Positions 17,836 through 35,700 are shown, counted from the stretch's first letter. The stretch: DNA of 64,000 bases from Candidatus Methylomirabilota bacterium (GCA_036001225.1 DASYUM010000339.1:2808-66807), one strand, 5' to 3'. The notes: generated by a model not told the origin, from the sequence alone. Made by a program: numbers and translations.

Positions 17836-17836
17836 G

Positions 17837-18753
17837 TCAGCCCCGCCGCCGGAGGCAGGCGCCGGTGACCGCGGCGATCCCGGCCAGGGCGTCCCAGCCC
17901 GAGGTGTGCCCGATCGCGTCCACCGCGTCGAGGCACGTGGCGAGTCGCGGCCGATCGGCGCTCGACACCGCCGCCAGCGTGTCGTGGAGCGCGGCGGCGC
18001 CCTCGCCGGCCGCCGCGCAGGCGAGGTGAGCCCGGCTGATGACCGTCGTCCGCTCGCGGGCCACCGGGAGCGCCCAGCCGGCCAGTGCCCGCGCGAGGTC
18101 GGCTCGGTCCACCGCGTGGAGGGCGAGCAGGATGCCGGCCACGAAGTCGTCGCCCGCCGGCGTCAGTCCCGGGCCGAGGCCGACGAGGCTCGCCGCCTCG
18201 GCCGGCGGCGGCGATGGGGCCCCGGCCCCGGAGACGGCCGCGAGGCCGGCCTCGAGCCAGTCGAGCAAGGGGACGATGCCCCGCCAGGCCAGGCTCAGCA
18301 GCGGCGGGTCGGCCGGGCGGGGACGCCGGGCGGAGACCGCGGTGGCGAGCGGCGTGATCAGCCGGCCGAGGCCCTCGGCCGGCGCCCGCTCGCCGGCGGC
18401 CGCCGCCAGGACGGCCACCCCGCGGGCGAAGTCGGCCGAATGCCGGGCGCCGGGCAGCGGAGCGGGGTGCCAGAGGGCGGCCCCGCCGAGCTCGAAGACG
18501 AAGCGCCCGTCGACGCGCAGGGTCGCGCCGTTGGCCTCCACACCCGCACCGGGGAGGAGGCCGCTCGCTTCCCAGTCGAGCGCCGACGGCAACACGCCCA
18601 GCGCGTTGAGCGGGCCGGCGCCAAGCCCGCGGGGACCGAGGCAGACCACGGACCCGCCGGCGTCCCGGCAGTAGAAGCTCCGGCGAAAGACGGCGAGGAC
18701 GCGCCAGCGCGTCTCACCGGCGAGCGCACGGCGAGCCGGGCCGCCGATCAGCA
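17837..18753 (-). CDS. DUF2877 family protein (YlbF/AllH-like, a partner of FdrA in oxamate carbamoyltransferase)
   Basis: N-terminal motif RVLAVFRRSFYCRDAGGSVVCL resembles the YlbF VVHSVFRHAVNVQLNDGQLVSL motif. The gene overlaps the fdrA start. The start codon is uncertain (GTG at 18751-18753 chosen). The long ORF's N-terminal extension is the translated intergenic repeat. Confidence 0.55.
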
Positions 18754-18857
18754 CGACGGGCACCGGACGCGGAACGAGGGCCACCGGCAGCGCGACGCCG
18801 GTTGCAGCTCGCACGGCGGGACCGGCGGTGGAACCGGGCTGAGGCCCGAGCAGCCCT

Positions 18858-21570: not shown

Positions 21571-21894
21571 TCACTGGAGGACATCGTCGGCGCGGACCAG
21601 GATCGATTGGGGGATCGTGAGCCGGAGCGCCTTCGCGATCAGGTCGGCGGCCAGGCCGGGCAGTCGCTCCAGCCGCCCCTCGGCCGTCTGAAAGTCGATC
21701 GCCAGGTTCCGGCCGTCGACGTAGCCCAACTCCCGCAATCTCTGCTCGAGCCCCTGGTAAGTGGGGGCAGACCGCGGGACCCCGACGCTGAGAATGGCTA
21801 TCCGCCAGACCGTCGCCGGCGGCTGGGCCTCGCCAGCGGGCACGCCGCCGAGCCCGAGGACGAGTGCGAGCAGGAGCGCCGCGCGCCGTCTCAC
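21571..21894 (-). pseudogene. Remnant (~107 aa) of an ABC transporter substrate-binding protein (ABC_sub_bind/DUF534 type), internally deleted and truncated
   Basis: Signal-peptide-like RRRAALLLALVLGLGG followed by RIAILSVGVP…ELGYVDGRNLAIDF…TIPQSILVRADDV. It ends after ~110 aa, whereas full-length homologues are ~320 aa. Its GTG overlaps the cupin stop (GTGA). Confidence 0.5.
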
Positions 21895-22379
21895 CGCAAG
21901 TGGGCGGCGCGCTCGGCCTGGAGCTTCGGGTCGGCGTAGCTCATTAAGTCCGGCTGGGCTCGGCCGAGCATCACCTGGATGTAGGCCGGCTCGAGCCCCA
22001 CGTTCTCGAAGCCGTGGACGACGCCGGCCGGCGCCGAGACGCAGTCCCACCGGCCGAGGGCGGCCTCCGCCCGGCGTCCGTCGGCGTCGTCGAAGAAGAC
22101 CTTCACCTTGCCGTCGAGGACGAAGAAGACCTCCTCGACCTCGTGGGAGTGGGGAGCATTGCCCTGCCCGGGCGGGACGAACATCACGCTGAGGGTGAAG
22201 TGCTCGGCGGCGATCGCCCGGGCGTCGGCCTTGCCGGAGGCCCCGGTGCCGATGTAGCGGTGCTGGGCGCGGCGGTAGCCGTCGACGCGCGCGTCGGCGA
22301 AGGCCTCCCAGTCCGCCACCCGATCGACGAAGCGGGCGATGCGCGTGCGGAGCAGCTCCTCGAGCGCGGCCGTCGTCAT
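21891..22379 (-). CDS. Cupin-domain protein
   Basis: 162 aa with a single cupin motif (…PPGQGNAPHSHEVEEVFFVLDGKVKV…HGFENVG). Confidence 0.7.
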   Translation of the reverse strand: MTTAALEELLRTRIARFVDRVADWEAFADARVDGYRRAQHRYIGTGASGKADARAIAAEHFTLSVMFVPPGQGNAPHSHEVEEVFFVLDGKVKVFFDDADGRRAEAALGRWDCVSAPAGVVHGFENVGLEPAYIQVMLGRAQPDLMSYADPKLQAERAAHLR

Positions 22380-22392
22380 CGCGGCACCCTCC

Positions 22393-24420
22393 TCACTCGC
22401 CGTATCCCAGCCAGACGAACACCTGGCCGGGCGGGAACGGCACGCCGAGCGCCTTCTCGAAGATCCCGTAGACGAACGCGAAGCCGAAGAGGCCGAGGCC
22501 GATCGTGATGGGCCAGCGCTCGCCGGCGCCGACTTTGAGATAGCCGAACGTCATCACCAGCGTCCCGAGGGAGAAGCCGAGCAGCCAGATCGCCGCGAAA
22601 TACCCGAGCGTCCAGAAGCCCACCTGGATCGTGCGGCGCGTCGCCACGGCGGCGGGCACGTCCGCGCTCGCGTCGAACGCGTCCATCGCCACGCCGCCCC
22701 GCCGGCCGGTGGCCTCGCGGGCGAACTGAACGATCCCGAGCGCCAGCGTCGGGATGCCGACCGCCCACGGGAAGAGGCCGGCTCGCACGCCGAAGTCCCG
22801 GCTCGTCCACAGCGCCCACCCGAACAGGAGGACGAGGGCCAGGCAGAAGGCCGTCGTCCCATCGAGCCGCAGACCCGGAGGCCGCTCCATCGCGCTCCGA
22901 TCCGAGACGACGACGATGGGGACCGCGCCCTGCCGGCGGCGCCGGCGCGCGTTCCAGACCGGGACGACGAGGCCAGCCGCGATGATCGCCAGCAGCACGA
23001 GCACGCCGGGCCGCAGCAGCCAGGCCGGGCCATAGTTGTCGGTGGAGAGGAAGAGCTTGTTCTCGGCGAGCGGACCCAGGACGAGGCCGAGCAGGAGCGG
23101 CGGCCGCGGCCAGCCGAGGCGGGCCATCATCCAGCCGAGGGCGCCGAAGGCCAGCACGACCCCGAGGTCCTCAAACACGTTCTTCTCGGCGAACGCCCCG
23201 ACGTAGACCAGCGTCAGGATGAACGGGATCAGCAGCGAGCCGCGGATCTGGGTGATGCGGGCGAGCCGGTTCATGAAGGCCAGGCAGACCGCGACCGTGA
23301 TGACGTTGGAGACGACGATGGTCCACACCATCGAGAACGTCACCGCCAGATGCCCCTTGGGCGCCGGGGTCAGCATCGCCGGCCCGGGGACCAGGCCCTG
23401 GATGAGAAAGGCCCCCATCAGGATGGCCGTGCCGACGCTGGCCGGAACGCCGAACGCGACGGTGGTGACCAGGCTCCCCCCGAGCGTCGAGTTGTTGGCG
23501 GCGCCGGGCCCGAGCACGCCTTCCACCGCTCCCCGGCCGAACCGCTCCCGGTTCGGCGAGCTCTGGACCGCGTGGGCGTACGCCAGCCACTGGGTCGTGG
23601 CGGCACCCATCCCCGGGATGATGGCGATGAACGTGCCGACGGCGCTACAGCGGATGACCAGCCACCAGTGCCGAAAGGTATCGCGGACGCCCTGCCAGAC
23701 ACCGCCGATCTCGCCGACGTCCAGCTTGGCGATGGCGGAGCCCTGGACGGCGAGGTCGATGACCTCGGGGATCGCGTAGAAGCCGATCGTGACCGGAACC
23801 AGCCCGATCCCGTCCCACAGGAAGAGCTGGCCGAACGTGTACCGCTGGATGCCGGAGACCGGATCGAGGCCGATGGTCGCCAGCCACAGCCCGAGGCCGC
23901 CGGCGACGAGTCCCCGCAGGAGGGCCTGGCCGCTCAGCGCGGCGACGAAGGTGATGCCGAGGAGGGCGAGCATGAAGAACTCGGGGGAGCCGAACGTCAG
24001 GACCAGCGGCCGGACGATCGGGATGGCCACGCCGAGGACGAACGCCCCGAAGACCGCGCCGATCAGCGAGCTCATCATCGCGGCCCCCAGCGCCCGGCCG
24101 GCCTCGCCGTTCTTGGCCATGGCGTGGCCGTCGACGATGGTGGCGGCCGAGGTCGGCTCGCCGGGGATGCCGAAGAGGATCGAGGTGATGTCACCGGTGG
24201 TGTTGGTCACCGCGAACATCCCGAGCAGGAACGCGAAGGCCTCGACGGGCGTCATCTTGAAGACGAACGGCAGCATGAGGGCGAGGGTGGTGGGCCCGCC
24301 CAGGCCGGGGAGGATCCCGACCACGAAGCCGATGACGATACCGATCAGCATGAGGCCGAAGGTGGGCCAGGCGAAGACCTGGACCAGCCCGACCCAGCTG
24401 GAGTGAGCGAACTCGACTAT
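22393..24420 (-). CDS. tctA: Tripartite tricarboxylate transporter large permease TctA with a C-terminal TctB-like small-subunit domain fused in frame
   Basis: The N-terminus aligns residue-for-residue with the canonical TctA start (…GF…TP…LIG…VGILPGLGG). No canonical start codon is present at that position (GTC/ATA at 24415-24420). After ~500 aa (…VPVWNARRRRRQ) a ~170-aa four-TM extension runs to 22393. The upstream 200 aa of the 893-aa ORF in the track are junk overlapping tctC. Confidence 0.6.
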   Translation of the reverse strand: MVEFAHSSWVGLVQVFAWPTFGLMLIGIVIGFVVGILPGLGGPTTLALMLPFVFKMTPVEAFAFLLGMFAVTNTTGDITSILFGIPGEPTSAATIVDGHAMAKNGEAGRALGAAMMSSLIGAVFGAFVLGVAIPIVRPLVLTFGSPEFFMLALLGITFVAALSGQALLRGLVAGGLGLWLATIGLDPVSGIQRYTFGQLFLWDGIGLVPVTIGFYAIPEVIDLAVQGSAIAKLDVGEIGGVWQGVRDTFRHWWLVIRCSAVGTFIAIIPGMGAATTQWLAYAHAVQSSPNRERFGRGAVEGVLGPGAANNSTLGGSLVTTVAFGVPASVGTAILMGAFLIQGLVPGPAMLTPAPKGHLAVTFSMVWTIVVSNVITVAVCLAFMNRLARITQIRGSLLIPFILTLVYVGAFAEKNVFEDLGVVLAFGALGWMMARLGWPRPPLLLGLVLGPLAENKLFLSTDNYGPAWLLRPGVLVLLAIIAAGLVVPVWNARRRRRQGAVPIVVVSDRSAMERPPGLRLDGTTAFCLALVLLFGWALWTSRDFGVRAGLFPWAVGIPTLALGIVQFAREATGRRGGVAMDAFDASADVPAAVATRRTIQVGFWTLGYFAAIWLLGFSLGTLVMTFGYLKVGAGERWPITIGLGLFGFAFVYGIFEKALGVPFPPGQVFVWLGYGE

Positions 24421-25451
24421 CGGAGGAGCCCCTTGAGCTTGGCCACCACCGTCGGGTCGAGGCGGAACAGCTCCTCGACCAGGCGTTCCAGCTCCACCCC
24501 GCCGACCGGGTCCACTTCCAGCTTCGCCTGCCGCGCGTCGGCCAGGAACTCGGGGTCGCGCAGCGTCTGGCTGAAGGCGGCGCGGAGCACCTGGACGCGG
24601 TCGGCCGGGGTGCCGGGCGGCAGCGCGTAGAGCCGGCTGATGGCGGCGGGGACGATCACCGCCGCCCGCAGGAGCTGGCGGGCCTCCTCGCTGCGGAAGA
24701 GGTCGAGTGCGAGGGGCACCTGGGGCAGTTCGGCCAGGGGTTTCTCGGTCACCTGGAGAACGATGGCGATCTCCCCGGCGTCGAGGGCCTTGCGCCAGGT
24801 CACCTTGACCGATTCCCACTGCCAGCACCCGCCGGCCACCTCGCCGGACTCGGCGGCCAGCCGGATCTCGGCGGTCCCCTTGTAGCCGCGCACGAGCTGG
24901 ATCGGCAGGCCGGCGGCCTGGAGAATCCGCGCCGTGTCGTGGGTCGTGTCGCCCGGCCCGACCCCGCCCAGCTTCACCGGGACCCGGGCCGCCATCCACT
25001 GCTCGGCGGTCACGATCCCGCTCGCCCGGGTCAGCGCGCAGATCGTGTTGTCCCGGACCGGGACGCCGAGCCACACGAACCTCCGGGCGTCGAACTCGAT
25101 CCCCTCGCGGCCGAGGAGCTGGCCGACGAGCTGGTTGCCGTGGAAATTGACGATGGTGAGGCCGTCGGGCTTGGCGACCTTGTAGGCGTGGTTGGCGGCG
25201 ATGATGCTGGCCGCGCCCGGCATGTTCTCCACGACGACGGCGGGCCGGCCGGGAAGGTGCTTGGCGAGGTGCCGGGCGATCGCCCGCGAGTAGGTGTCGA
25301 AGCCGCCGCCGGCCGTGAAGCCGACGACGATGCGGACCGTCTTGCCCTCGAAGACGCGGGGCTGGCCGTCGGCCGGACGGCCGGCGACCAGGGCGGCGAG
25401 GAGCGCGAGGGCGGCGGCCAGCGCTCGGCGCCCATGAGGGCGTCGGTCCAA
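24417..25451 (-). CDS. tctC: Tripartite tricarboxylate transporter substrate-binding protein TctC (Bug family), paralogue 1
   Basis: A TTG start at 25449-25451 gives the signal peptide MDRRPHGRRALAAALALLAALVAG. Bug/TctC fold sequence follows (RIVVGFTAGGGFDTYSR…). Confidence 0.7.
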   Translation of the reverse strand: MDRRPHGRRALAAALALLAALVAGRPADGQPRVFEGKTVRIVVGFTAGGGFDTYSRAIARHLAKHLPGRPAVVVENMPGAASIIAANHAYKVAKPDGLTIVNFHGNQLVGQLLGREGIEFDARRFVWLGVPVRDNTICALTRASGIVTAEQWMAARVPVKLGGVGPGDTTHDTARILQAAGLPIQLVRGYKGTAEIRLAAESGEVAGGCWQWESVKVTWRKALDAGEIAIVLQVTEKPLAELPQVPLALDLFRSEEARQLLRAAVIVPAAISRLYALPPGTPADRVQVLRAAFSQTLRDPEFLADARQAKLEVDPVGGVELERLVEELFRLDPTVVAKLKGLLR

Positions 25452-25572
25452 TCGCGCGCGGCCGGAGACTGAATCGCCGACCGTATGGTGGTCCGCTCCG
25501 AGCGGCGGCTTTGCCGCCGCAATTTTCCTGGGGGAGGTCTCGGAGGGGGCCGTCGAGGCCCCCTCCGAAAAT

Positions 25573-26604
25573 CTAGTCATACAGGATCGTCTTCAGCCGG
25601 GCGATCATGGGCGGCTCCAGCTTGAACAGCCGCTCGACGACGCGCTCGAGCTCGTCCCCGGGGATCGGCTCGATCTCGAGCTTCGCCCGCTCGGCTTCGG
25701 CGAGGAACTCCTTGTCACGTAGCGTGGCCGCGAACGCGCGGCGCAAGAGCTGCACGCGGTCCCTGGGGGTCCCCGGCGGCAAGGCGAGCGAGCGGACGAC
25801 GGCGCTGTCGGCGTGGATCGCGACTTCGATCACGCGGCGCGCCTCGTCGGTCTTGGCGAGGTCGATGGCGAGCGGGACGCCGGGCAGCTCGGGGTGGCTC
25901 TTCGGCGCGAGCTGGAGGAGGACCACCAGCTCGCCGGCGTCCAGCGCCTTCCGCCAGGTCGCGCGGATCGAGCCCCAGTTGAAACAGGTGCCGGCCAGCT
26001 CCCCGGCCTCCACCGCGAGCCGGATGTCGGCGGTGCCCTTGTAGCCGGTGACGAGCTGGATCGGGAGCCCGAGCGCCGCCTTGATCGCCCGGGTGGCGTT
26101 GTCCGGGGTGCTGGAACCCGGCGCGACCCCGCCCATCTTCACCGGCGCCGGGGCCGTCATCCACTTCTCCAGGGTCGTGATGCCGCTGGCCTTCGCCATG
26201 ACGCAGACGACGTGATCGTTGGCGGGGGCGCCGAGGAACTCGAACTTCCGGGCGTCGAACTCGATGCCCTTCTGGCCCAGGACCTGGCCGAGGAACAGTC
26301 CGCCGATGAAGTGGCCGATGGTCAGCCCATCCGGCCGGGCGACCTTGTAGACGTGATTGGCCGCGATCAGGCTGCCCGCCCCCGGCATGTTCTCGACGAT
26401 GACCGTCGGGGCGCCGGGAAGCTGCCGGCCCAGGTGCCGGGCGAACGTGCGGGCGAACGTGTCGAAGCCCCCACCGGCCGAGAAGCCGACCACGATGCGG
26501 ATCGTCTTGCCCCGGTAGAAGTCGTCCTGGGCGACCGCCGCGGCCGGCGCGATGCCAGCCACGCCGAGCACGAGCAGAAGCCGCGCGAACCGGCCACGGG
26601 TCAT
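25573..26604 (-). CDS. tctC: Tripartite tricarboxylate transporter substrate-binding protein TctC (Bug family), paralogue 2
   Basis: ATG 26602-26604 is preceded by AAGGAG. Signal peptide MTRGRFARLLLVLGVAGIAPAAAVA. Roughly 60% identical to paralogue 1. Confidence 0.8.
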   Translation of the reverse strand: MTRGRFARLLLVLGVAGIAPAAAVAQDDFYRGKTIRIVVGFSAGGGFDTFARTFARHLGRQLPGAPTVIVENMPGAGSLIAANHVYKVARPDGLTIGHFIGGLFLGQVLGQKGIEFDARKFEFLGAPANDHVVCVMAKASGITTLEKWMTAPAPVKMGGVAPGSSTPDNATRAIKAALGLPIQLVTGYKGTADIRLAVEAGELAGTCFNWGSIRATWRKALDAGELVVLLQLAPKSHPELPGVPLAIDLAKTDEARRVIEVAIHADSAVVRSLALPPGTPRDRVQLLRRAFAATLRDKEFLAEAERAKLEIEPIPGDELERVVERLFKLEPPMIARLKTILYD

Positions 26605-28871
26605 GGGTGTTCTCCTTTTCGGGCGACGAGCGCCCGCCACACCCGCTCCGGGGTGAGCGGGAGGTCCGTGATGCGCACGCCCACGGCCCGCGCGAGCGCG
26701 TTGGCGATGGCCGGCGCGGTGGGGAGGAGGCCGCTTTCGCCGATCCCCTTGGCGCCGTACGGCCCCGGCCCGTCGCCGTTCTCGACCAGGATGCTCTCGT
26801 ACTCCACCGGCAGGTCACCCATCACCGGCACCCGATAGTCGATGAGCGACGGGTTCACCAGCTGACCGCCGTCGTAGACCAGCTGCTCGAAGAAGGTGTG
26901 GCCGAGACCCATCATGGCGCCTCCCTGCTCCTGCGCCTCGCACTCTCGCGGGTTGATCGCCCGGCCGACGTCGGCGACCGAGACATAGCGGAGCACGCCG
27001 ACCGCCCCCGTCTCCTCCTCGACCTCGACCTCGGCCGCCGCCATGCCGACCTCCCAGAACGGCGCCTCGCCGCCCAGGCGGGCCTGCCCCCGCTCGCCGC
27101 GATAGGTGCCCCGCCCGATCAGCTCGCCCCCCGGCATGCCGAAGTGGGCGGCGAGCGCCTCGGGGTAGGTCAGCGCGCCGGCGGGCGCCACGATCCGCCC
27201 GTCGCGCAGGGTCAGGCCGGCCCGGTCGCCCCCGAGCCGGCCGGCGGCGATGGCGAGGAGCTGGTCCCGGACGTCGCGGGCCGCGGCGAGGACGGCGAAG
27301 CCCAGCAGCGTCGTCGAGCGGCTCGCGCTGGTCGCCTGGTCGTAGGGCCCCAGGCCCGACTCCGGGCGGGCCGCCGCCACCCGACCGAGGGGAAGGGCCA
27401 GCTCCTCGGCGACGATCTGCAGGAGCACCGTGCGGACACCCTGGCCGCACTCGACGGTCCCGGTGAGGAGGGTGGCGCTCCCGTCGGCGTGCAGCCGCAC
27501 CATCGCGCTCGACACCGAGGGGGCGAGCGGCGCCTTGATGGTGCAGGCCAGCCCTTTCCCGCGGCGGGGCGCGGCCGGCGGCGCCGACCAGCCGATCGCG
27601 GTCGCCGCCTTCCGCAGCCCCTCGGCGAGGTCGCAGTCGATGGGCAGGTCGCCCTCCATGAACGTCTCCCCGCGCCGGAGCAGGTTCTTCACCCGCAGCT
27701 CGAGCGGGTCCATCCCGAGCCGTTCGGCGAGCACGTCCATCTGCGACTCGTAGGCCCAGGCGAGCTGGGGCACGCCGTAGCCGCGAAAGGCGACGCTCAC
27801 GACCGTGTTCGTGTAGACGCCGTAGGCGTCGATGCGGAGGTGGGGGAGGCGATAGGGCCCGGCCGAGGTGTAGGCCGACTTCTGGACGACCCGCGGCCCC
27901 ACGTCGGCGTATGCCCCGAGCTGGTAGTGGATCTCGCCCTGGCGCGCGACGAGAGTGCCGTCGCGACGGGCGCCGGTCTTGAGCCGATAGCGCACGGCCG
28001 CCCGCCGCACCGACTGGAAGGCCTCCTCGGCGGTGAGGGCCAGGCGCACCGGCCGCCGGACGGCGGCGGCGAGCGCGATCACGAGCGGCTCGATCTTCGT
28101 GTAGGACTTGTTCCCGTAGGCGGCGCCGAGATAGGGGACGATGACCTGGAGGCGGGCCAGCGGCACTCCGAACATCGCGGCCAGCTCCGCGCGCACCGGG
28201 AAGGGGTGCTGGGTCGACGCCCAGACCGTGATCCCCTGGCGATCGACCCGGGCGATGGCGCAGTGCGGCTCGAGCGCGCAGTGGTGCGCCATCGGGAAGG
28301 TATAGGTCTGCTCGACCACCAGATCGGCCTCGGCGAAGGCGCGGTCGGGGTCGCCCCGCTCGTAGTGGAAGTGGTGACAGACGTTGGTCCCCGCAATCGG
28401 GCGGAGCGTCCCCAGGTCCCGGAAGTGGCCGGCGGGGCGGGGCGACTCGTGTAGCAGCGGGGCGCCCGGCGCCAGCGCCTCGTCGAGGGTGATGACGACC
28501 GGCAGCTCGGCGAGGTCGACGGCGATCCGGCCGAGCGCCGCGTCCGCGTGGGCCGCCGTGTCGGCCACCACCGCCACCACGGGTTCGCCGGCGTAGCGCA
28601 CCACGCCGTCGGCCAGGAGCGGCTGGTCCTTGAAGGCCGGACCGTAGTAGAGGTCCTTCACCGGGAGGTCACGGGCGGTGAGGACGCCGATGACGCCGGC
28701 CGCCCGCGCGGCGCCGGCGGTGTCCACGCTCACGACGCGCGCGTGGGGAAGCGGGCTCCGCCAGAGCTTGGCGTGGACCATCCCGGGGACCACCAGGTCG
28801 GTGATGAACCCCGCCCGCCCGGTCGCCTTGGCCGGCGTATCGACGCGCGGCGCGGCGGTGCCGACGATCAC
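26601..28871 (-). CDS. Xanthine-dehydrogenase-family molybdopterin-binding large subunit (CoxL/XdhA-like), paralogue B
   Basis: GTG 28869-28871 overlaps the paralogue-A stop (GTGA). Aldehyde-oxidase/XDH a/b hammerhead and Mo-binding motifs (VAFRGYGVPQ, GQGVRTV…, ESGLLPTAPAIANAL). The 1478-aa ORF in the track is an artefact fusing A and B. Confidence 0.8.
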   Translation of the reverse strand: MIVGTAAPRVDTPAKATGRAGFITDLVVPGMVHAKLWRSPLPHARVVSVDTAGAARAAGVIGVLTARDLPVKDLYYGPAFKDQPLLADGVVRYAGEPVVAVVADTAAHADAALGRIAVDLAELPVVITLDEALAPGAPLLHESPRPAGHFRDLGTLRPIAGTNVCHHFHYERGDPDRAFAEADLVVEQTYTFPMAHHCALEPHCAIARVDRQGITVWASTQHPFPVRAELAAMFGVPLARLQVIVPYLGAAYGNKSYTKIEPLVIALAAAVRRPVRLALTAEEAFQSVRRAAVRYRLKTGARRDGTLVARQGEIHYQLGAYADVGPRVVQKSAYTSAGPYRLPHLRIDAYGVYTNTVVSVAFRGYGVPQLAWAYESQMDVLAERLGMDPLELRVKNLLRRGETFMEGDLPIDCDLAEGLRKAATAIGWSAPPAAPRRGKGLACTIKAPLAPSVSSAMVRLHADGSATLLTGTVECGQGVRTVLLQIVAEELALPLGRVAAARPESGLGPYDQATSASRSTTLLGFAVLAAARDVRDQLLAIAAGRLGGDRAGLTLRDGRIVAPAGALTYPEALAAHFGMPGGELIGRGTYRGERGQARLGGEAPFWEVGMAAAEVEVEEETGAVGVLRYVSVADVGRAINPRECEAQEQGGAMMGLGHTFFEQLVYDGGQLVNPSLIDYRVPVMGDLPVEYESILVENGDGPGPYGAKGIGESGLLPTAPAIANALARAVGVRITDLPLTPERVWRALVARKGEHP

Positions 28872-31162
28872 GGCGGCGGCCCGTCGCCACGCGCCGCCTG
28901 CAGGGCGCGCCAGACGCGCTCCGGGGTCAGCGGCAGCTCGGTGAGCCGGACGCCCACCGCGCGGGCGAGGGCGTTCCCGACCGCGGGGGCCACGCAGAAC
29001 GTCCCGCTCTCCCCCACGCCCTTCGCGCCGAAGGGGCCGGGTCCGTCGCCGTTCTCGACCAGCAGCGTGTCGAGCCGGTCCGGCAGGTCGGCGAAGGTCG
29101 GCAGGCGGTAGTCGATCAGCCCGGGATTCAGGAGCTGGCCCGCCTCCCCGACCCGGGCCTCGAACAGAGCGGGGCCGAGTCCCTGCATCGCCGCGCCCTC
29201 GTCCTGGGCCGCGCACTCGCGCGGGTTGATGGCCTGCCCCACGTCGGCGGCCGAGACGTACCTCCGCAGCCGCACCGCGCCGGTCTCTGCATCGACCTCG
29301 ACCTCGGCGGCGCCCATCCCGGTCTCCCAGAACACGGTGGCGCCGCCCAGCGTCCCCGACCACGTCGTGGGGACGAAACTGCCGACGCCGGTCACCTCGC
29401 CGCCGACGAAGCCGAAGTGGCCGCGGACGACCTCGGCCACCGTGAGTGAGTGCGCGCCATGGACGACGCGGCCGTCCCGGACGTCGAGGGCCGCGGGGTC
29501 GGCGCCGAGGCGGTCGGCCGCGAGGGCGCAGAGCTGGAGCCGGGCATCGCGGGCGGCCGCCTGGACGGCGAGCCCCATCACGGTCGTCGAGCGGCTGGCG
29601 CTGGTCCCGTGGTCGTACGGCGTGAGCGACGTATCGGGGAGGGCGACGACGACGCTCTCGAACGGAACCCCGAGCGTCTCGGCGGCGATCTGGGCGAGGA
29701 CGGTCTGGGCGCCCTGCCCCACCTCGACCGTGCCGGCCAGGAGGCTCACGCTCCCGTCGGCGTGGATCCGGACCACCGCGCTGGACACCGTGTGTGTCCC
29801 GCCGCCGTCCTTCATCGCGACCGCCAGGCCCCGGCCGCGGCCCGGCCCGAGCGCGGCGCCCCAGTCCACCGCCTGGGCCGTCCCCTGGAGACCCTCGGCG
29901 AGGTCGCCGTCCATCGGCGTGTCGCCCGCCACGTATTCCTCGCCGCGCTTGAGCAGGTTCTTGAGCCGGAAGGCCAGCGGGTCGAGGCCGAGCCGCTCGG
30001 CGAGCACGTCCATCTGCGACTCGGAGGCCCAGGTGACCTGGGGCACGCCGTAGCCCCGGTAGGCGCCGGCCGGGACGTTGTGGGTGTAGACGCAGCGCGC
30101 CTCGATCCGGAGCGCCGGGATGCGGTACGGTCCCGGCGCGCGGTACCCGGCCTTCGTCGCGACGCGGGGGCCGATGTCGGCGTAGGCGCCGGTGTCGAGG
30201 ACGGCGTCGCACTCGCGCGCCAGCAGCGTCCCGTCCCGCCGGACTGCGGTCCGGAGCCGGACCGTCACCGCGTGGCGGGTGACGGTGCGCGCGCTCTCCT
30301 CGAGCGAGAGCGCCAGGCGCACGGGCCGGCCGACTCGGGCGGCCAGCGCGGCGGCGATCGGCTCGATCTTGGTGTAGCACTTCCCGCCGAAGGCCCCGCC
30401 GACGAGGGGGACGACCACCTGGACCCGGGCGAGGGGGAGATCGAAGATCTCCGCCAGCTCCTTCCGGACCGCGAACGGGTGCTGGGTGCCGGTCCACACG
30501 GTGAGGCCGTCCTCGTCCAGCCGCGCCACCGCGCAGTGGGGCTCGAGGGCGTGGTGGGAGAGCGCGGGATAGCGGTAGACCTCGTCGACGACCAGGTCGG
30601 CCTCGGCGAATGCCCGGGCGCGGTCGCCCCGCGCGTACTCGAAGTGGTGGCAGACGTTGGTTCCCGGCACCGGCCGGAGCCCGGCGAGGTCGCGGAAGCG
30701 TCCGGCCCGCTCGCGCTGGGGATGGACCAGGGGCGCGCCGGACGCCAGCGCCAATTCGGCGCTCGTCGCGGCCGGCTGCTCCTCGTAGCGGACCTCGAGG
30801 AGGCCGACGGCCGCCTCCGCGTGGGCCTCGGTGTCGGCGACCGCGGCGACCACCGGCTCCCCCGCGAAGCGGACCTCCTCGTGGGCGAGGATCGGCTGGT
30901 CCCGGAAGGCCGGGCCGTAGTACAGGCGCGCGACGGGCAGGTCGGCGGCCGTGCAGACGGCCAGGACGCCGGGGGCGGACGCCGCGCGGGACGTCTCGAC
31001 GCCGAGGAGCCGGGCGTGAGGGACCGGGCTTCGCCACAGCTTGGCGTGGACGAGGCCCGGGAGCACGAGATCGCTGACGTAACGGGCCTCGCCGGTCACC
31101 TTCTCCCGGGCGTCGAGTCGGGGCACCGAGCGGCCGACGACGCTCAGGTGCTCAGCGGCCAT
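28868..31162 (-). CDS. Xanthine-dehydrogenase-family molybdopterin-binding large subunit (CoxL/XdhA-like), paralogue A
   Basis: 764 aa with motif GAYRGYGVPQ. Co-directional with the 2Fe-2S and FAD subunit genes. Confidence 0.85.
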   Translation of the reverse strand: MAAEHLSVVGRSVPRLDAREKVTGEARYVSDLVLPGLVHAKLWRSPVPHARLLGVETSRAASAPGVLAVCTAADLPVARLYYGPAFRDQPILAHEEVRFAGEPVVAAVADTEAHAEAAVGLLEVRYEEQPAATSAELALASGAPLVHPQRERAGRFRDLAGLRPVPGTNVCHHFEYARGDRARAFAEADLVVDEVYRYPALSHHALEPHCAVARLDEDGLTVWTGTQHPFAVRKELAEIFDLPLARVQVVVPLVGGAFGGKCYTKIEPIAAALAARVGRPVRLALSLEESARTVTRHAVTVRLRTAVRRDGTLLARECDAVLDTGAYADIGPRVATKAGYRAPGPYRIPALRIEARCVYTHNVPAGAYRGYGVPQVTWASESQMDVLAERLGLDPLAFRLKNLLKRGEEYVAGDTPMDGDLAEGLQGTAQAVDWGAALGPGRGRGLAVAMKDGGGTHTVSSAVVRIHADGSVSLLAGTVEVGQGAQTVLAQIAAETLGVPFESVVVALPDTSLTPYDHGTSASRSTTVMGLAVQAAARDARLQLCALAADRLGADPAALDVRDGRVVHGAHSLTVAEVVRGHFGFVGGEVTGVGSFVPTTWSGTLGGATVFWETGMGAAEVEVDAETGAVRLRRYVSAADVGQAINPRECAAQDEGAAMQGLGPALFEARVGEAGQLLNPGLIDYRLPTFADLPDRLDTLLVENGDGPGPFGAKGVGESGTFCVAPAVGNALARAVGVRLTELPLTPERVWRALQAARGDGPPP

Positions 31163-31646
31163 CGCCCGGCCCGGCGTGGCCCGGCTGCCGAGAAGCGGCC
31201 AGGATCGCCTCCAGGATGCGCTTGTAGCCGGTGCACCGACAGATGTTGCCGCGCATGTAGCGCTTGACCTGGTCGGCCGTCGGCGTCGGGTTCTCCTCGA
31301 GCAACGCCACGGTGGCCATGATCATCCCCGGCGTGCAGAAGCCGCACTGGAGGGCGCCGTGCTCGACGAAGGCCGCCTGCACCGGGTGGAGATCGTCCCC
31401 GCGGGCGAGGCCCTCGATGGTGCGGACGTGCGTGCCCCGGGCTTCGAAGGCGAGGACGGTGCAGGCGCTCACCGGCCGGTCGTCGAGGAGCACGGTGCAG
31501 GCCCCGCAGACCTGGACCTCGCACGACTTCTTCACGCCGAGGAGGCCCAGGCGGTCGCGGAGGCATTCGATCAGGGTCTCCCACGGCGGGACGGTCAGCT
31601 GGTGCCGCTCGCCGTTGACCGTCACCGTCATCGGCACTTCTTTCAT
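31152..31646 (-). CDS. (2Fe-2S)-binding small subunit of the Mo hydroxylase (CoxS-like)
   Basis: MKEVPMTVTVNGERH…CEVQVCGACTV…CGFCTPGM…CRCTGY, with two [2Fe-2S] Cys clusters. The real start is ATG 31644-31646. Confidence 0.85.
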   Translation of the reverse strand: MKEVPMTVTVNGERHQLTVPPWETLIECLRDRLGLLGVKKSCEVQVCGACTVLLDDRPVSACTVLAFEARGTHVRTIEGLARGDDLHPVQAAFVEHGALQCGFCTPGMIMATVALLEENPTPTADQVKRYMRGNICRCTGYKRILEAILAASRQPGHAGPGDGR

Positions 31647-31753
31647 CGGGTCCACCCCCGACCCCTCCCCACCCACCGGGGGGAGGGGTGAGTCGCGACC
31701 GGCCCTCGGCCGGCACTCACGGACCAACCCTCCCCGCTGCCACCTCCGGCACC

Positions 31754-32635
31754 TCAGAGGACTGGACTGCCGTCCCGCAGCGAGGCGAGGGCCTGGGCGA
31801 AGGCCCGCTTGAGCAGGACCCCGACCAGGTGGGCCTTGAAGTCGGCCGAGCCGTGGAGGTCGGTGACCGCATCCGCCGCCTGCCCGGCCCGCCGTCCGGC
31901 CTCGGCGAGCGCCGCCACGCTCTCGTCGATCGCCCGGTCCCGCAGCATCGCCTCGGCCTCGGGCATCCGGCACGGTACGGGGCCGACGCACCCGACCGCG
32001 ACCCGGGCGTCGGCGACCCGCCCGTCGTCGAGCGTGAGCGCGACCGCCACCCCGACCGAGGGGCGCTCGAGGTACCCGAACTTGAGATAGGCCGCCGCCG
32101 ACCGGGGCGGAAGCGGGGGGACCGCGATCTCGGTCAGCACCTCGTCGCCCTCCAGGCACGTCTCGTACGGACCCCGGAAGAGCGCGGTGAGCGGGACCGT
32201 CCGCTCGCCGCCCGCGCGCTCGAGCCGTGCCGTCGCGGCGAAGACCTGGAGGAGCGGCCCCGGATCGGCGTGAGGCTCGGCGAAGCAGAGGTTGCCGCCG
32301 AGCGTCCCCACCGCGCGGACACGGACGTTGGCGACGTCGGCCTCCAGGCGGGCGAGAGCCGGGAAGTGCTCGCGGACCAGCGGCTCCCGCTCGAGGGCGC
32401 GGTGGGTGGCGGCGGCGCCGATCCGGAGGGTGCCGTCGGCGTCGCGGCGAAGGCCGGCCAGCCCGGGAACCGTCTTGAGGTTCACCAGGTAGTCGTAGTG
32501 GACCAGGCCCTCCTTCATCGCCAGCAGCAGCTCGGTCCCCCCCGCGTAGAGCCGGGCCGCGTCCCCGTGCTGGGCCAGGAGGCCAGAGGCCTCGGCGACG
32601 GAGGTCGGCTCGCAGAGCTCGAACGGCCTCAGCAC
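31754..32635 (-). CDS. FAD-binding medium subunit of the Mo hydroxylase (CoxM/XdhB-like)
   Basis: 293 aa with an FAD-binding PCMH-type domain (YAGGTELLLAMKEGL…). Confidence 0.85.
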   Translation of the reverse strand: MLRPFELCEPTSVAEASGLLAQHGDAARLYAGGTELLLAMKEGLVHYDYLVNLKTVPGLAGLRRDADGTLRIGAAATHRALEREPLVREHFPALARLEADVANVRVRAVGTLGGNLCFAEPHADPGPLLQVFAATARLERAGGERTVPLTALFRGPYETCLEGDEVLTEIAVPPLPPRSAAAYLKFGYLERPSVGVAVALTLDDGRVADARVAVGCVGPVPCRMPEAEAMLRDRAIDESVAALAEAGRRAGQAADAVTDLHGSADFKAHLVGVLLKRAFAQALASLRDGSPVL

Positions 32636-32639
32636 GCGC

Positions 32640-33092
32640 TCACCCCGGGGTCTCCAGCTGCGCGCGCAAGGCCGCCGCGAACCGGTCCACGATCTCGGCG
32701 CCCTTGCGCACGATGACGCCGTGGCCGAGCGTGCCCAGCTTCCCCAGGACCGTGATCTCGGCCGTCAGCCGGAGCGCCGTCCCGCCGTCGGTGGGCGCCA
32801 GCACGACGTCGAGGTCCACCTTCACCAGCCCGTCGACGGCCGCGTCGCGCCCGCCGGCGCGGGCGCGGAGCCGCGCCGGCGGCTCGACCTCGACGACCTC
32901 GATGTCCAGGGGGAACTGGACCTTGAACGGCCCGACCTTCTCGGCGACCACGGCGGCGTAGCGCTTGCCCGCCTCGACCGTCCGCACCTCCCGGGCCCCC
33001 GGGACGCAGGCGGCCAGCCGCGGGATGTCCCAGAGAAAGCCCCAGACGGTCTCCCGCGACGCCCCGATCCGGATCTCGCGCTCGACTCTCAC
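32640..33092 (-). CDS. coxG: CoxG-family SRPBCC protein
   Basis: ~150 aa (VEREIRIGASRETVWGFLWDIPRLAACVPGA…). GTG start at 33090-33092. The upstream part of the 408-aa ORF in the track is junk. Confidence 0.65.
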   Translation of the reverse strand: MRVEREIRIGASRETVWGFLWDIPRLAACVPGAREVRTVEAGKRYAAVVAEKVGPFKVQFPLDIEVVEVEPPARLRARAGGRDAAVDGLVKVDLDVVLAPTDGGTALRLTAEITVLGKLGTLGHGVIVRKGAEIVDRFAAALRAQLETPG

Positions 33093-34636
33093 GGGGCTCG
33101 CGACACCTCGGAGGCCTCCAGCACCGGAACCGGCCGGAAGACGAGCGACTTGATCACCACCGGGACGATGCCCGAGACGGGCAGCGGATCCCCGACGTCG
33201 ATGTAGTCGAAGGCGGCGAGGTCCAGCTCGTCCACCGCCACTAGGCTCGGCCCCGCCCCCAGCTCCTCGACCAGGAGCCGCCCCACCAGCCGCGCGATGT
33301 CGCGGTCGAAGGCCAGCACCACCGGAGCGTCGCGGCGCCCGATGGCGGCCAGGATCCCTTCCCCGAGCGCCCGCAGTTCCTCGTAGCTCGAGCCGAACTC
33401 CCACCGGATGGCGAGCGCGAGGGGTCCGGCCAGGAGCTCGGGATCGTGGCCCGCCATCGCCGTCTGGACCGCGCGCGCGACGCCGGTCGCCGTCAGCGGA
33501 TCGGCCAGGCGCACGGGGAAGACCGGCAGATTCCGCAGGACGAGGCCCGGCCGCGGGTGGAAGATCGTGCTGCCGCTCACCTGCACCGTGTACTGGGCCG
33601 CCCCGATGACGGTCGCCCGGATGCCCTCGTCCGCCTCGACGAGGCGCGGGCCCAGCGGGTGCCCGGTGAGCCGCCGCCGCACGGCCTCGCCCAGCATCCG
33701 GCCGAGGTCGCCGAAGCCTCCGGGCTCCCGGCCGTAGACGTACTCGGCGACGCCGCCGGAGAACATGAGGGCCGTGACGGGCTCGGCCCGGGCCAGGGGC
33801 GCGGTGTGCATGAGACGGCGGCTCAGCGGCGAGAGCGGACGGCGGTCGATCACCTCGAAGAGGCACTCGACCATTCGCGCCACGAGGTCGCCGAGGAGCG
33901 CGGCCCGGGCCGGCTCGTCGATGGGGTCGCCGAGGGCGAGCCGGCCGCCCGCCGTCTCGGCCAGCTCGGCGCCGGCCTCCTCCAGCCGGCTGACGCGCCC
34001 ATCCTCCCAGGCGACGAGCCGCCCGCCGACGTTGATGACGGCCGTGTCCACGACTTCGCCGTCCCGGCAGAGCGCCAGCTTGCTCGTCCCGCCGCCGACG
34101 TCCACGTTGAGCACGGCTCCGCCCTGCCGCGAGCGGGCCACGGCGCCGGAGCCGTGCGCGGCCATGATCGCCTCCAGGCGGGGGCCGGCGGTGGCGCAGA
34201 CGAACCGCCCGCCGTCGCGCGCGAAGAGCCCGAGGATCGCCTCCGCGTTCGTCTTCTTGGCCGCCTCCCCGGTGACGATGACCGCCCCGGTGTCGATCGC
34301 CTCTCGGGAGAGGCCGGCTCGCCGATAGGCGTCGTCGACGAATCCGGCCAGCCGCTCGGCGTCGATGGTGACCGGGTCCCGATACGGCGTCAGCAGGATC
34401 GGCGACTGGTGGACGACGTCGCGTTCGACCACGCGGTACCGACTGGACAGGCTCAGCCCGAGGCGGCGGAGGACCAGGCGGGAGAAGGTCAGGTGCGAGG
34501 TCGAGGAGCCGATGTCGATGCCGACGCTGCGCAGCTCGATCCGCTCGGCCGCCCAGACCGGGTCGGCCTCGTCGGGCAGGCCGACCGGATCGCCCTCGTG
34601 GGCGTCGTGCTCGTGGGAGTGGGGAAAGTCGTGCAT
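33089..34636 (-). CDS. EutA-like ASKHA-superfamily protein (homologue of the ethanolamine ammonia-lyase reactivase)
   Basis: Start MHDFPHSHEHDAHEG at ATG 34634-34636, overlapping the bicupin stop (ATGA). Collinear with EutA: SVGIDIGSSTSHL, AIDTGAVIVTGEAAKK, VLNVDVGGGTSK, VINVGGRL, MFSGGVAEYVY, ATVIGAAQYTVQVSGSTIF, VVIKSLVF. Confidence 0.7.
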   Translation of the reverse strand: MHDFPHSHEHDAHEGDPVGLPDEADPVWAAERIELRSVGIDIGSSTSHLTFSRLVLRRLGLSLSSRYRVVERDVVHQSPILLTPYRDPVTIDAERLAGFVDDAYRRAGLSREAIDTGAVIVTGEAAKKTNAEAILGLFARDGGRFVCATAGPRLEAIMAAHGSGAVARSRQGGAVLNVDVGGGTSKLALCRDGEVVDTAVINVGGRLVAWEDGRVSRLEEAGAELAETAGGRLALGDPIDEPARAALLGDLVARMVECLFEVIDRRPLSPLSRRLMHTAPLARAEPVTALMFSGGVAEYVYGREPGGFGDLGRMLGEAVRRRLTGHPLGPRLVEADEGIRATVIGAAQYTVQVSGSTIFHPRPGLVLRNLPVFPVRLADPLTATGVARAVQTAMAGHDPELLAGPLALAIRWEFGSSYEELRALGEGILAAIGRRDAPVVLAFDRDIARLVGRLLVEELGAGPSLVAVDELDLAAFDYIDVGDPLPVSGIVPVVIKSLVFRPVPVLEASEVSRAP

Positions 34637-35700
34637 CAGTGGCGCACGACCGCGGGCATGCGGCTCGAGACCCCCTCCTGGGCCAGCTCGGTCTCGAACA
34701 GCGCGCGCACCGCCGGAACCTCGTCCTCGTACTCGATCTGGTTCCCGCCGGTGGCCCGGTCCTCCGAGAGCCGATCGTGCTTGTCGTCGAGCTTGTGCTT
34801 CACGCTCCCCCAGCGGATCGCCAGGTAGCGCGCCGGGGTGGGGCCGGCGTTGAAGTGCTGGTGCCACCAGTAGTCGGGCGGAACGAACACGCTCCCCTCG
34901 TGCCAGTCGACCTTGGTCCATGGCTGGCCGTCCGGCCAGAGCAGCGAGTACCCCCGGCCGCCCAGGATGATCACGTTGGCACCGGGCCCGTGCCGGTGCG
35001 CCTTCTTGTACGTTCCCACCGGAAACTCCGAGATGTGGGCGATCAGGGTGTTGTTGGCCAGCTCGAACATGATGTTGCTGCCGCCCGCGCCGCGCTCCTT
35101 CCACTCGAGGAGCTGGAACGCCTTCACGTCGGGAATGAAGTTGGCTTCCCAGATCCGGCTGGCCAGGAACGTCCCTTTCCCGCTGAAGGCGTCGGCCTCC
35201 GCGGTGAACCGGTCGCGGAAGACGGAGGGGTTGTCGAAGACGAAGTCGTGGTTGTGGAAGAGATTCATGACCAGGGGCGCGCTGGTGACGGCGTAATAGC
35301 GGGCCGGCTGGGTTCCCGACGCGTTGAAGTGCTGGTGGAAGGCGTTGAGGGGGATCGCGAAGAGGCTGCCCGCCTGCCACTCGAAGGTGATCTTGAGGCT
35401 GCCCTCGATCCAGACCGCCGTCGAGCCGCGGCCGGCGAGGACGTAGATCACCTCCTCGTAGAGGTGGCGCTGGGGCGCCAGCTTCCCCCCCGGCGCGATC
35501 TCGCACACGTAGGCGCCGTTGGTCCCCCCCGTCCCTTCCATGTCGATGAAGACGCCCCGGCCGCCCTTGCGGGCCCAGGGGGCCAGATCCACCATCCGCA
35601 GGTCCTCGACGTAGAAGCCGCGGATGACGGGGAGCCCCTCGGACTGCTGCCATTGCTCGTAGGTGCTGCGCATGGTGACGGGGCTGTTGGAGATCGGCAT
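34636..35700 (-). CDS. Bicupin protein (gentisate 1,2-dioxygenase-like double cupin)
   Basis: ATG 35698-35700 with an AGGGGGA RBS. Two internally duplicated cupin halves each carry HQHFN…PARY. HRHGPGANVII is also present. Confidence 0.7.
   Translation of the reverse strand: MPISNSPVTMRSTYEQWQQSEGLPVIRGFYVEDLRMVDLAPWARKGGRGVFIDMEGTGGTNGAYVCEIAPGGKLAPQRHLYEEVIYVLAGRGSTAVWIEGSLKITFEWQAGSLFAIPLNAFHQHFNASGTQPARYYAVTSAPLVMNLFHNHDFVFDNPSVFRDRFTAEADAFSGKGTFLASRIWEANFIPDVKAFQLLEWKERGAGGSNIMFELANNTLIAHISEFPVGTYKKAHRHGPGANVIILGGRGYSLLWPDGQPWTKVDWHEGSVFVPPDYWWHQHFNAGPTPARYLAIRWGSVKHKLDDKHDRLSEDRATGGNQIEYEDEVPAVRALFETELAQEGVSSRMPAVVRH

Follow-up and report, generated by a model that had tools for sequence, protein, structure and literature searches.

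How can one set of electron-transfer genes serve more than one complete catalytic-subunit gene? The question is raised by a 64-kb stretch of DNA (~72% GC, hereafter the window) from a metagenome-assembled genome (MAG) of Candidatus Methylomirabilota (Rokubacteria) from soil. In it, two genes for the large molybdenum (Mo) subunit of a hydroxylase, A and B, lie head-to-tail behind one gene each for a CoxG-like protein, a flavin adenine dinucleotide (FAD) subunit (M) and an iron-sulfur (FeS) subunit with two [2Fe-2S] clusters (S), and a third large-subunit paralogue, C, lies apart from them. To our knowledge, characterised bacterial Mo-hydroxylases have one large (L), one M and one S gene and form (LMS)2 particles. 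No description of operons with several full-length L genes per S/M set was found in the literature searched, an absence that is not proof. The first-pass annotation had proposed either alternative holoenzymes or an alpha-alpha' heteromer; its premise of several intact L genes with one S/M set held, and the choice between the two only leaned toward holoenzymes. The arrangement was found to be conserved and under selection, and is best explained by a shared electron-transfer module with substrate-specific catalytic subunits. That one FeS/FAD module serves such large subunits, giving alternative holoenzymes, is considered moderately probable.

Large-subunit genes A and B and the redox genes upstream

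The genes concerned, all on the minus strand, are as follows.

32640-33092, minus strand: CoxG-like SRPBCC protein, ~150 aa, PF06240 COXG
31754-32635, minus strand: FAD subunit M, 293 aa, FAD_binding_5 and CO_deh_flav_C domains
31647-31753, minus strand: M-S spacer, 107 nt, GC-rich with several hairpins, -69.9 kcal/mol, z = -3.0 versus shuffles
31152-31646, minus strand: 2x[2Fe-2S] subunit S, 164 aa from the ATG at 31646 (alternative ATG at 31631), matched by NCBIfam small-subunit models
28868-31162, minus strand: large Mo subunit A, 764 aa, with the "A-type" pocket signature GGAFGGKC / TRH / LDT / VPAGAY / KDGGGTH
26601-28871, minus strand: large Mo subunit B, 756 aa, GTG start, with the "B-type" signature G(A/G)AYGNKS / RRA / YQL / VVSVAF / K-APLAP / HTFFE / ESGLLPTAPA

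Translation, Pfam matches and the junction sequence all agreed with the earlier description of two full-length large subunits (764 and 756 aa) in head-to-tail order with a start/stop overlap. The junction reads ...CCG CCG CCG TGA, the GTG of B overlapping the TGA of A as GTGA, and the same GTG start was chosen in the JGI gene call (P0115) and by the GC3-based gene caller. Pairwise identity was 60% for A-B, 53% for A-C and 52% for B-C, so that the ~50% first given for A and B was too low. The 1478-aa open reading frame (ORF) at 26601..31037, taken at first for an artefactual A-B fusion, exists but is the frame of B staying open through A out of frame, a long opening that is expected because the DNA is 75% GC. 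The easy mis-annotation feared on its account was not borne out: B is present in a JGI record, and proteins identical to A and C, of exactly these lengths, are recorded at NCBI from the same Methylomirabilota (Rokubacteria) MAG contig.

The GTGA overlap was rejected as a specific sign of an A-B complex. Overlaps of 4 bases between start and stop were present at 8 of the 36 same-strand junctions of the window, among them that between B and TctC1, whose product, a binding protein of the TctC type, is no part of an enzyme. With overlaps this frequent in the window, the GTGA lends little weight to a complex, and the 4-nt overlap is a matter of general operon compaction and coupling, not the mark of a shared particle.

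In subunit S, the eight canonical cysteines of the two [2Fe-2S] motifs were located at 42/47/50/62 and 101/104/136/138. Its frame is that of the ORF 31152..32159, and at the 3' end the gene shares 11 nt, the ATG included, with A. The ORF 31144..31716 (190 aa), first designated as the small subunit, was discarded since it had no Pfam match and the true S lies in another frame. The cysteines of M are scattered (8, 117, 160, 216, and 222) and form no 4-Cys insertion. The CoxG-like protein has no C-terminal membrane helix on reading of its sequence, and its putative role is assigned by analogy with the menaquinone-binding CoxG of Mycobacterium smegmatis (PMC12202499). In orthologous loci, the gap between the M and S matches was only ~10-70 nt, and no Rfam family matched the M-S spacer of the window. 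When the S and M proteins were searched against the whole window by tblastn, one copy of each was found, and the CoxG, M and S genes upstream of A and B were the only ones of the window. Within these 64 kb, the two large subunits do lie behind a single 2Fe-2S, FAD and CoxG set, as had been claimed.

Each of A, B and C matched Ald_Xan_dh_C, MoCoBD_1 and MoCoBD_2 in Pfam (E 1e-25 to 1e-74). By direct counting, Gln224 and Glu743 of the quinoline oxidoreductase Qor aligned with the TQ and GVGE of A. The motifs TQ, GGxFGxK, RG(Y/F)G, GQG, SASRST and the glutamate of GxKGxGE were kept in all three proteins and in the clade consensus. On these sequences, A, B and C are assigned to the xanthine dehydrogenase (XDH)/Mo-hydroxylase family with every feature tested present, the partner subunits included (S with two [2Fe-2S] Cys motifs, M with FAD_binding_5 and CO_deh_flav_C).

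Head-to-tail paralogues are the usual product of duplication, and one of the tandem copies could on that ground be a recent redundant duplicate or a decaying pseudogene. This is very improbable. The two proteins are only 60% identical, with a synonymous divergence (dS) of ~0.73, and in the neighbor-joining tree the B clade was sister to the A clade plus a group of "A-like" proteins of 60-66% identity, with C further out, so that the A/B split is older than the A/A-like split. Both are full length with all cofactor motifs, and no copy lacking the Mo-cofactor ligands was found among A, B and C. The ratio of nonsynonymous to synonymous substitutions (dN/dS, Nei-Gojobori, window versus four orthologous loci) was 0.20-0.24 for A and 0.19-0.22 for B. 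Orthologues of B were conserved at least as well as those of A, and neither frameshifts nor losses of the catalytic Gln or Glu were seen in the orthologues. A degenerate duplicate was therefore rejected on the intact motifs and the dN/dS of ~0.2.

Divergence between A and B was analyzed in an alignment of 49 A-clade and 31 B-clade sequences, in which a column was called fixed when conserved at ≥90% within each clade and differing between them. There were 55 such columns, one of them the start-codon column, leaving 54 residue positions. They fell in runs, with 21 neighbor gaps of ≤2 against 7.2 ± 2.3 expected, a value reached in 0 of 20,000 permutations. The pocket runs, in A numbering, are listed below; CODH denotes carbon monoxide dehydrogenase.

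A 253-262: A-type GGAFGGKC, B-type G(A/G)AYGNKS
A 322-324: A-type LDT, B-type YQL
A 362-368: A-type NVPAGAY, B-type TVVSVAF, aligned with the CODH active-site loop
A 450-457: A-type MKDGGGTH, B-type IK-APLAP, presumably at the XDH Phe1009/Thr1010 loop, where we place it from motif knowledge
A 664-670: A-type PALFEAR, B-type HTFFEQL
A 721-729: A-type TFCVAPAVG, B-type LLPTAPAIA, just past the catalytic Glu

The substrate-channel comparison suggested by the first-pass annotation thus places A and B apart in their pocket-loop motifs, as far as an alignment can tell, with C being A-like. Outgroups and C carry the state of A at these runs, so that B appears to be the derived, neofunctionalised copy. 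We infer that A keeps the ancestral pocket and that B is an old paralogue with remodelled pocket loops. The B-type signature was retained down to 64-69% identity.

Layout in related loci and assembly of the subunits

Related loci were collected by a scan of a genome collection with A (L002-L077) and of metagenomes with B (L080-L158), both mapped by tblastn; in loci of 60-63% GC, genes were taken from ORF lists and not from the GC3-based caller. The order CoxG-M-S-A-B was found in 6 genome and ~20 metagenome loci of Rokubacteria (~26, some probably redundant), with TctC(-TctC)-TctAB usually next. Orthologues of A in these searches were 73-82% identical and those of B 76-85%. A stood directly upstream of B in ~26 of 27 Rokubacteria contexts. 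At the A/B junction, 16 of the 20 orthologous loci had an RTGA or TAATG overlap (the 4-nt RTGA form in 14), and the remaining 4 had a gap of 60-100 nt. The adjacency of S and A is not fixed, since in one Rokubacteria locus (L162, 18032-21219) genes for a cyclase/AAA protein (626 aa) and an alpha/beta hydrolase (452 aa) separate S from the A orthologue.

How the products of such an operon could assemble is suggested by M. smegmatis CODH, an (LMS)2 enzyme with an independent electron path per half, in which electrons pass from Mo through two [2Fe-2S] clusters to FAD inside one L-S-M protomer and CoxG is the quinone-binding partner (PMC12202499). With an electron path of this intra-protomer kind, sharing only needs each L to bind a copy of S and M. 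Each large subunit would bind its own copy of S and M to give an ordinary L-S-M protomer, and the resulting holoenzymes, A-S-M and B-S-M, would differ only in the substrate pocket. The electron route would be Mo to 2x[2Fe-2S] to FAD to an acceptor, possibly a quinone handled by CoxG. Dimerisation of protomers goes through L in this family, and a proportion of mixed A/B dimers may therefore arise, in which each half would still be an independent electron path. The gene content of the window, three full-length large-subunit genes versus one S and one M, speaks for such a shared module.

The other possibility raised at the outset is an obligate heteromer with a fixed alpha-alpha' core, (A-S-M)(B-S-M), and two different active sites per particle, for example for successive hydroxylations. 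Paralogues of homodimers often keep cross-dimerisation. The near-constant A-B adjacency and the RTGA overlap kept at 14 of 20 junctions would suit such a particle, as would the pairing of A-type with B-type genes that persists at 60-69% identity (L100, L163, L078). Dimerisation through L is established for the family and seen in CODH (PMC12202499). Several observations oppose it nonetheless. In five loci (L098, L099, L101, L104, and L110), a B-type protein was the sole large subunit behind its own CoxG-M-S; the GC content was 60-62% where measured (L098, L099, and L101), so these loci are ascribed to another lineage, and an amidase and an Amidohydro_2 gene lie near in L099. Because B-type stands there as the only large subunit, it would need no A to form a standard enzyme. 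In one genome (P0002/P0117 contig), CoxG-M-S-A is followed by 17.7 kb of other genes (hydantoinase A/B, binding proteins, racemase-type enzymes, an LLM-class oxidoreductase, and a peptidase) and only then by B-TctC-TctC-TctAB. Locus L164 has the order UbiD-SBP-A-like-amidase-SBP-B-type-SBP, where SBP is a solute-binding protein, and no M or S on its 20.7-kb contig. A-B adjacency is therefore not obligatory.

A third kind of operon, in L078 (6051-16886) and L079, has the order cupin-CoxG-M-S-L1-SBP-L2-SBP-L3, in which the three L are A-type, B-type and of a third type, in that order; the SBPs are two NMT1-type binding-protein genes, and upstream there is a UbiD decarboxylase gene. Nowhere else were L+SBP modules seen so clearly on one redox module. 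Three L genes do not fit a 1:1 pair, and other genes stand between A- and B-type here and in L164. The same 4-nt overlap that joins A to B also joins B to the TctC1 gene, which encodes no enzyme subunit. No L-L fusion was present among the best matches of three protein searches, the longest match (936 aa) being an S-L fusion. Taken with these points, the obligate heteromer is unlikely. A more specific form, an obligate (A-S-M)(B-S-M) hydroxylase with two non-equivalent sites, possibly for consecutive hydroxylations of an imported heterocyclic carboxylate and with C as a third exchangeable partner, is more doubtful still, and no enzyme of that kind was found described for the Mo-hydroxylase family.

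The sole-B-type operons, the separated A and B genes and the three-L operons lean toward independence of A and B, and with it toward alternative holoenzymes. A shared module with exchangeable L is the most economical reading, and would also mirror the two 60%-identical TctC proteins sharing one TctAB permease at the same locus. The persistent pairing of A-type with B-type keeps a functional partnership, through consecutive steps or a heteromer, alive. It was confirmed by gene context in three cases, namely, L163 (CoxG-M-S-A-like-B-type), L164, and L078/L079, and at least 10 further B-type proteins of 63-69% identity apparently share a contig with an A-like protein, as judged from equal contig size.

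A number of points weigh against alternative holoenzymes. A-type and B-type genes co-occur on one contig even at 60-69% identity, which would fit an obligate partnership, and the RTGA is kept in 14 of 20 loci though the start codon changes, as would be expected if coupled synthesis in near-equimolar amounts were selected for. At 1:1:1 per protomer, two or three L would have to draw on a single S gene and a single M gene, which calls for unequal expression. The contigs on which B-type stands alone are only 4-10 kb long and may come from a single lineage, and an A-type gene could lie beyond their ends. Dedicated S/M genes for B or C are possible elsewhere in the genome, and subunit assembly is here read from the genes. 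In an a priori test, the zones of ±8 residues around six cofactor motifs contained no significant excess of fixed differences (13 versus 9.3 expected, p = 0.11), clustering along the sequence being the only significant signal, so that the assignment of the runs to the "pocket" rests on motif alignment, not on structure.

Loci L008 (Armatimonadota MAG) and L050 (Bacillota MAG) also carry L-L' tandems, of other pocket types; that of L050 stands behind M-S. A search of the plasmid collection with B returned matches of ≤43% identity, and the one context inspected, that of Thermomicrobium roseum, had no tandem. On this megaplasmid (L160; NC_011961.1, 49618-65894), large-subunit and 2Fe-2S genes lie beside genes for phosphoenolpyruvate (PEP)-utilising and pyruvate-binding-domain proteins, and upstream of these there is a separate FAD-binding gene. 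PEP-utilising proteins are reported to take part in 3-hydroxypyridine dehydrogenation (HpdA paper, bioRxiv 10.1101/2020.01.08.898148).

Paralogue C and its cassette

The third large-subunit gene is the last of a four-gene cassette on the same strand.

44845-45855, minus strand: LLM-class oxidoreductase 2, Bac_luciferase, first gene of the LLM-amidohydrolase-LLM-C cassette
43667-44848, minus strand: cyclic-amidohydrolase-superfamily protein, Amidohydro_1/3, with weak NCBIfam matches only
42670-43662, minus strand: LLM-class (F420/flavin) oxidoreductase 1, Bac_luciferase, TIGR03842-like but under the cutoff, ATGA-coupled to C
40412-42673, minus strand: large Mo subunit C, 753 aa, with an A-like pocket but GGAFGSRE and KDGGGTR, and no adjacent S or M

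The first description of C as a full-length paralogue with no S/M genes adjacent, coupled by ATGA to an LLM gene in an LLM-amidohydrolase-LLM cluster, was reproduced in every part, and the tblastn search of the 64-kb window, to which the result applies, gave no second S/M set. Orthologues of C were 70-81% identical to it, and the whole cassette recurred in L159, L162, and the P0131 contig. Of 7 contexts examined, 5 had C in the vicinity of the same CoxG-M-S module, at a distance of <1 kb (L112), 3.9 kb (L162), 6 kb (L161), 7.3 kb (window), and ~14 kb (P0124 contig); wherever the orientation could be seen, the strand was the same too. It is consistently an "orphan" large subunit that tends to stay near a CoxG-M-S module.

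A competing explanation is that C, possibly B as well, has S/M genes of its own elsewhere in the genome, or another redox partner. Within ±10 kb of the C cassette of L159 and of the P0131 contig, S and M genes were absent, the genome is visible over 64 kb only, and a dedicated S does occur in the wider family in the form of the S-L fusions P0171 and P0196. The proximity of C to the same CoxG-M-S in 5 of 7 contexts and the single S and M genes of the window argue the other way. We hold dedicated partners to be possible, with the balance of evidence tilting away from them; C probably uses the same S/M module as A and B.

In the two fusions (P0171, 930 aa; P0196, 936 aa), Fer2 and Fer2_2 domains are joined to a large subunit 51-53% identical to C. 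Just downstream of C lies an ORF of 557 aa (X557, 38648-40321, minus strand) in the lowest-GC stretch of the region (0.674). It matched no Pfam or NCBIfam family and in the PDB gave a coiled-coil-like match only; having no family and no conservation beside C orthologues, it was dismissed as a new redox partner of C.

Known enzymes, operon surroundings and substrate

None of A, B and C reached any NCBIfam equivalog cutoff. The best model for all three was TIGR03194, the alpha subunit of 4-hydroxybenzoyl-CoA reductase (A 503, B 476.5, and C 494.7 bits versus a cutoff of 994.55), and on these scores they are placed in an uncharacterised subfamily. The corresponding enzyme, HcrABC of Thauera aromatica (PDB 1RM6), was also the best solved-structure match of A (E = 1.3e-103, full length) and has the same L/M/S organisation and fold family. 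It differs in having one large subunit, an inserted [4Fe-4S] loop in M that is lacking here (TIGR03195, 121.8 versus 404.55 bits), and the motif GAKEASEG in HcrA in place of GAKGVGES; the operon of the window has no CoA ligase. Identity with 4-hydroxybenzoyl-CoA reductase was rejected on the scores below cutoff and the absent [4Fe-4S] loop.

Aerobic CODH (form I CoxSML with CoxG, as in Oligotropha and M. smegmatis 8UEM) and "form II CoxL" share the CoxG/M/S/L gene set and domain families, and the JGI name for these proteins is "CO/xanthine dehydrogenase Mo-binding subunit." Form I CODH has the active-site loop AY(R)CSFR, whereas the loops here are AYRGYG (A), AFRGYG (B) and AYRGFG (C), without the Cu-binding Cys; its models (TIGR02416 and NF040766 among them) scored ~270-313 bits against cutoffs of 950-991. 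In contrast to CODH, the CoxG here is without a C-terminal membrane helix, and there are two large subunits. Without the AYRCSFR loop, form I CODH was not accepted as the identity. Bona fide XDH (XdhA/PucD/XdhB) was likewise rejected: the best model, NF043082, gave 496 (A), 463.5 (B), and 443.3 (C) bits versus 780, and the residue after GGxFGxK, which we take from motif alignment to be the position of bovine XDH E802, is Cys in A and Ser in B (Glu in C).

The component set recalls N-heterocycle dehydrogenases. In Ensifer adhaerens HpdA1-4, a separate SRPBCC protein and the Mo, FeS and FAD components are all needed for activity (bioRxiv 10.1101/2020.01.08.898148). The likeness is one of components, a CoxG-like SRPBCC protein beside a Mo/FeS/FAD set, and HpdA3 differs in having a signal peptide and a membrane segment (same source). 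In PicA and SpmABC, likewise N-heterocycle dehydrogenases, the SRPBCC domain is fused to the FeS subunit. All three systems come from catabolic clusters for pyridine-type compounds and have one Mo subunit each, versus two here. The nicotinate dehydrogenase of Eubacterium barkeri (NdhL/NdhM, PDB 3HRD) does have two adjacent Mo-domain genes beside one FeS and one FAD subunit, but they are two halves of one L (425 aa corresponding to A 6-414 and 330 aa to A 443-756, both chains matching A). Because the alignment of A, like that of B, spans a full-length L from end to end, a split large subunit of this type was rejected. In multi-oxygenase Rieske systems, for example of sphingomonads, one ferredoxin/reductase serves several substrate-specific catalytic components. 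The analogy is in logic only: families and chemistry are unrelated, and the shared parts are diffusible there, whereas S and M are stably bound subunits here.

The remaining features of the apparent operon are listed in the direction of transcription.

35767-35738, minus strand: promoter-like site upstream of the bicupin gene, a sigma-70-like sequence match
34636-35700, minus strand: bicupin, ~354 aa (start at 35700 or 35760), Cupin_2/Cupin_1, first gene of the apparent operon
33089-34636, minus strand: EutA-like ASKHA-family protein, ~515 aa, PF06277 EutA, E = 8.8e-115
25573-26604, minus strand: TctC1 solute-binding protein, 343 aa, PF03401, its ATG overlapping the TGA of B as ATGA, with the Shine-Dalgarno sequence AAAGGAGAA upstream
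24417-25580, minus strand: TctC2 solute-binding protein, start at 25580 or 25451, PF03401
22393-24351, minus strand: fused TctA-TctB permease, ~652 aa, TctA N-terminal and TctB C-terminal in one ORF
21891-22379, minus strand: small cupin, 162 aa, Cupin_2, downstream of the transporter genes

The bicupin gave a weak match to the 5-aminosalicylate dioxygenase model, far under its cutoff. The EutA-like protein fell under every NCBIfam EutA cutoff, and the stop of its gene overlaps the CoxG start by 4 nt. Both genes also lie upstream of CoxG in L005 and the P0002 contig. In SAR202/Dehalococcoidia (L023 6-5907, L024 2-5901, and L048 3-4476), four or five tandem bicupins, 43-49% identical to that of the window, are located upstream of a large-subunit gene and in the opposite orientation to it; neither S nor M occurs within 10 kb of that gene.

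The tripartite tricarboxylate transporter set is complete by domains, with two TctC proteins and the fused TctA-TctB. TctC1 and TctC2 were 59.8% identical over 316 aa, the same divergence as that of A and B. The gene tctB is usually separate and upstream of tctA; in L001, JGI calls a 654-aa TctA+TctB gene at the equivalent place. The number of TctC genes varied from 0 to 2 among orthologous loci, with one in L001 and none between B and TctAB in L113 and L114. An ORF opposite tctA (22339..24630, plus strand, 763 aa) was rejected as a fourth large subunit, being a low-complexity shadow ORF. In L005, an orthologue of the small cupin (86%) follows the TctAB match at a distance of ~1.5 kb. In the window, the same strand continues past the small cupin with genes for a DAO-type oxidase and an M24/creatinase-like protein, for AllH- and FdrA-like proteins, and for a class-V aminotransferase and an amidase. 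No terminator-like site was found on the minus strand between 21.0 and 40.5 kb. An Rfam scan of 21-47 kb returned no family, and therefore no Mo-cofactor riboswitch in that region; Pfam domains of the maturation proteins XdhC/CoxI and MocA were absent from the genes of the window.

The locus is best explained as a catabolic island around a Mo hydroxylase of the XDH family. A and B would be co-transcribed with the two paralogous TctC proteins and one TctAB permease, and because of this their most likely targets would be two related carboxylates taken up by the cell, or a single compound together with the product of its first hydroxylation. The substrates are probably N-heterocyclic or aromatic carboxylates, a class suggested by context: the tripartite tricarboxylate uptake system, the cupins, amidase, amidohydrolases and AllH/FdrA-like genes, the UbiD neighbors in loci of relatives and the hydantoinase insertion.

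A functional variant of the alternative holoenzymes is a sequential pathway, with A and B acting in turn on one imported compound at two ring positions. Classical degraders of nicotinate and isonicotinate carry out two successive hydroxylations with two separate Mo enzymes, as in Bacillus niacini (nicotinate and 6-hydroxynicotinate dehydrogenases) and Mycobacterium INA1 (isonicotinate and 2-hydroxyisonicotinate dehydrogenases). The pairing of A-type with B-type survives wide divergence, a single TctC accompanies the two large subunits in L001, and the neighboring genes suggest ring-opening and amide or ureide chemistry (cupins, amidase and the AllH/FdrA-like pair in the window, Amidohydro_2 and amidase in L099, and UbiD in L078 and L164). 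The duplicated TctC (60%) and the L+SBP modules of L078 and L164 point instead to two parallel imported substrates, and B-type occurs without A-type in some loci. A sequential pathway is accordingly only a tentative proposal, which we rate below even chances.

At 16314-18763, a coding-looking stretch (16741-17880) without a Pfam match lies between, and overlaps, an AllH-like gene (17837-18763, minus strand) and a short ORF that carries a CoA-ligase domain of the FdrA type (16314-16970). A frameshifted oxamate carbamoyltransferase (AllFGH-like) cluster is one possible explanation, faulty gene calls another. On the other side of the operon, a 539-aa protein (55501-57120, minus strand) consists almost entirely of ankyrin repeats (Ank_2, E = 2e-68), a composition that is uncommon in bacteria, and is adjoined by a 1016-aa adenylate/guanylate cyclase-AAA-TPR protein (57322-60372).

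The enzyme family is a known one, and the novelty lies in the layout. An obligate two-active-site heterodimer, if true, would raise the interest of the finding. The conserved layout of one module with two or three L implies combinatorial holoenzymes, which would change the interpretation of the "CO/xanthine dehydrogenase Mo-binding subunit" paralogues of soil and marine metagenomes, orphans like C included. The A-type and B-type signatures define two specificity classes by sequence and can be used to sort hundreds of unannotated proteins. For the uncultured Rokubacteria, an abundant soil phylum, the locus points to an uptake-plus-hydroxylation module in which each L is paired with a binding protein.

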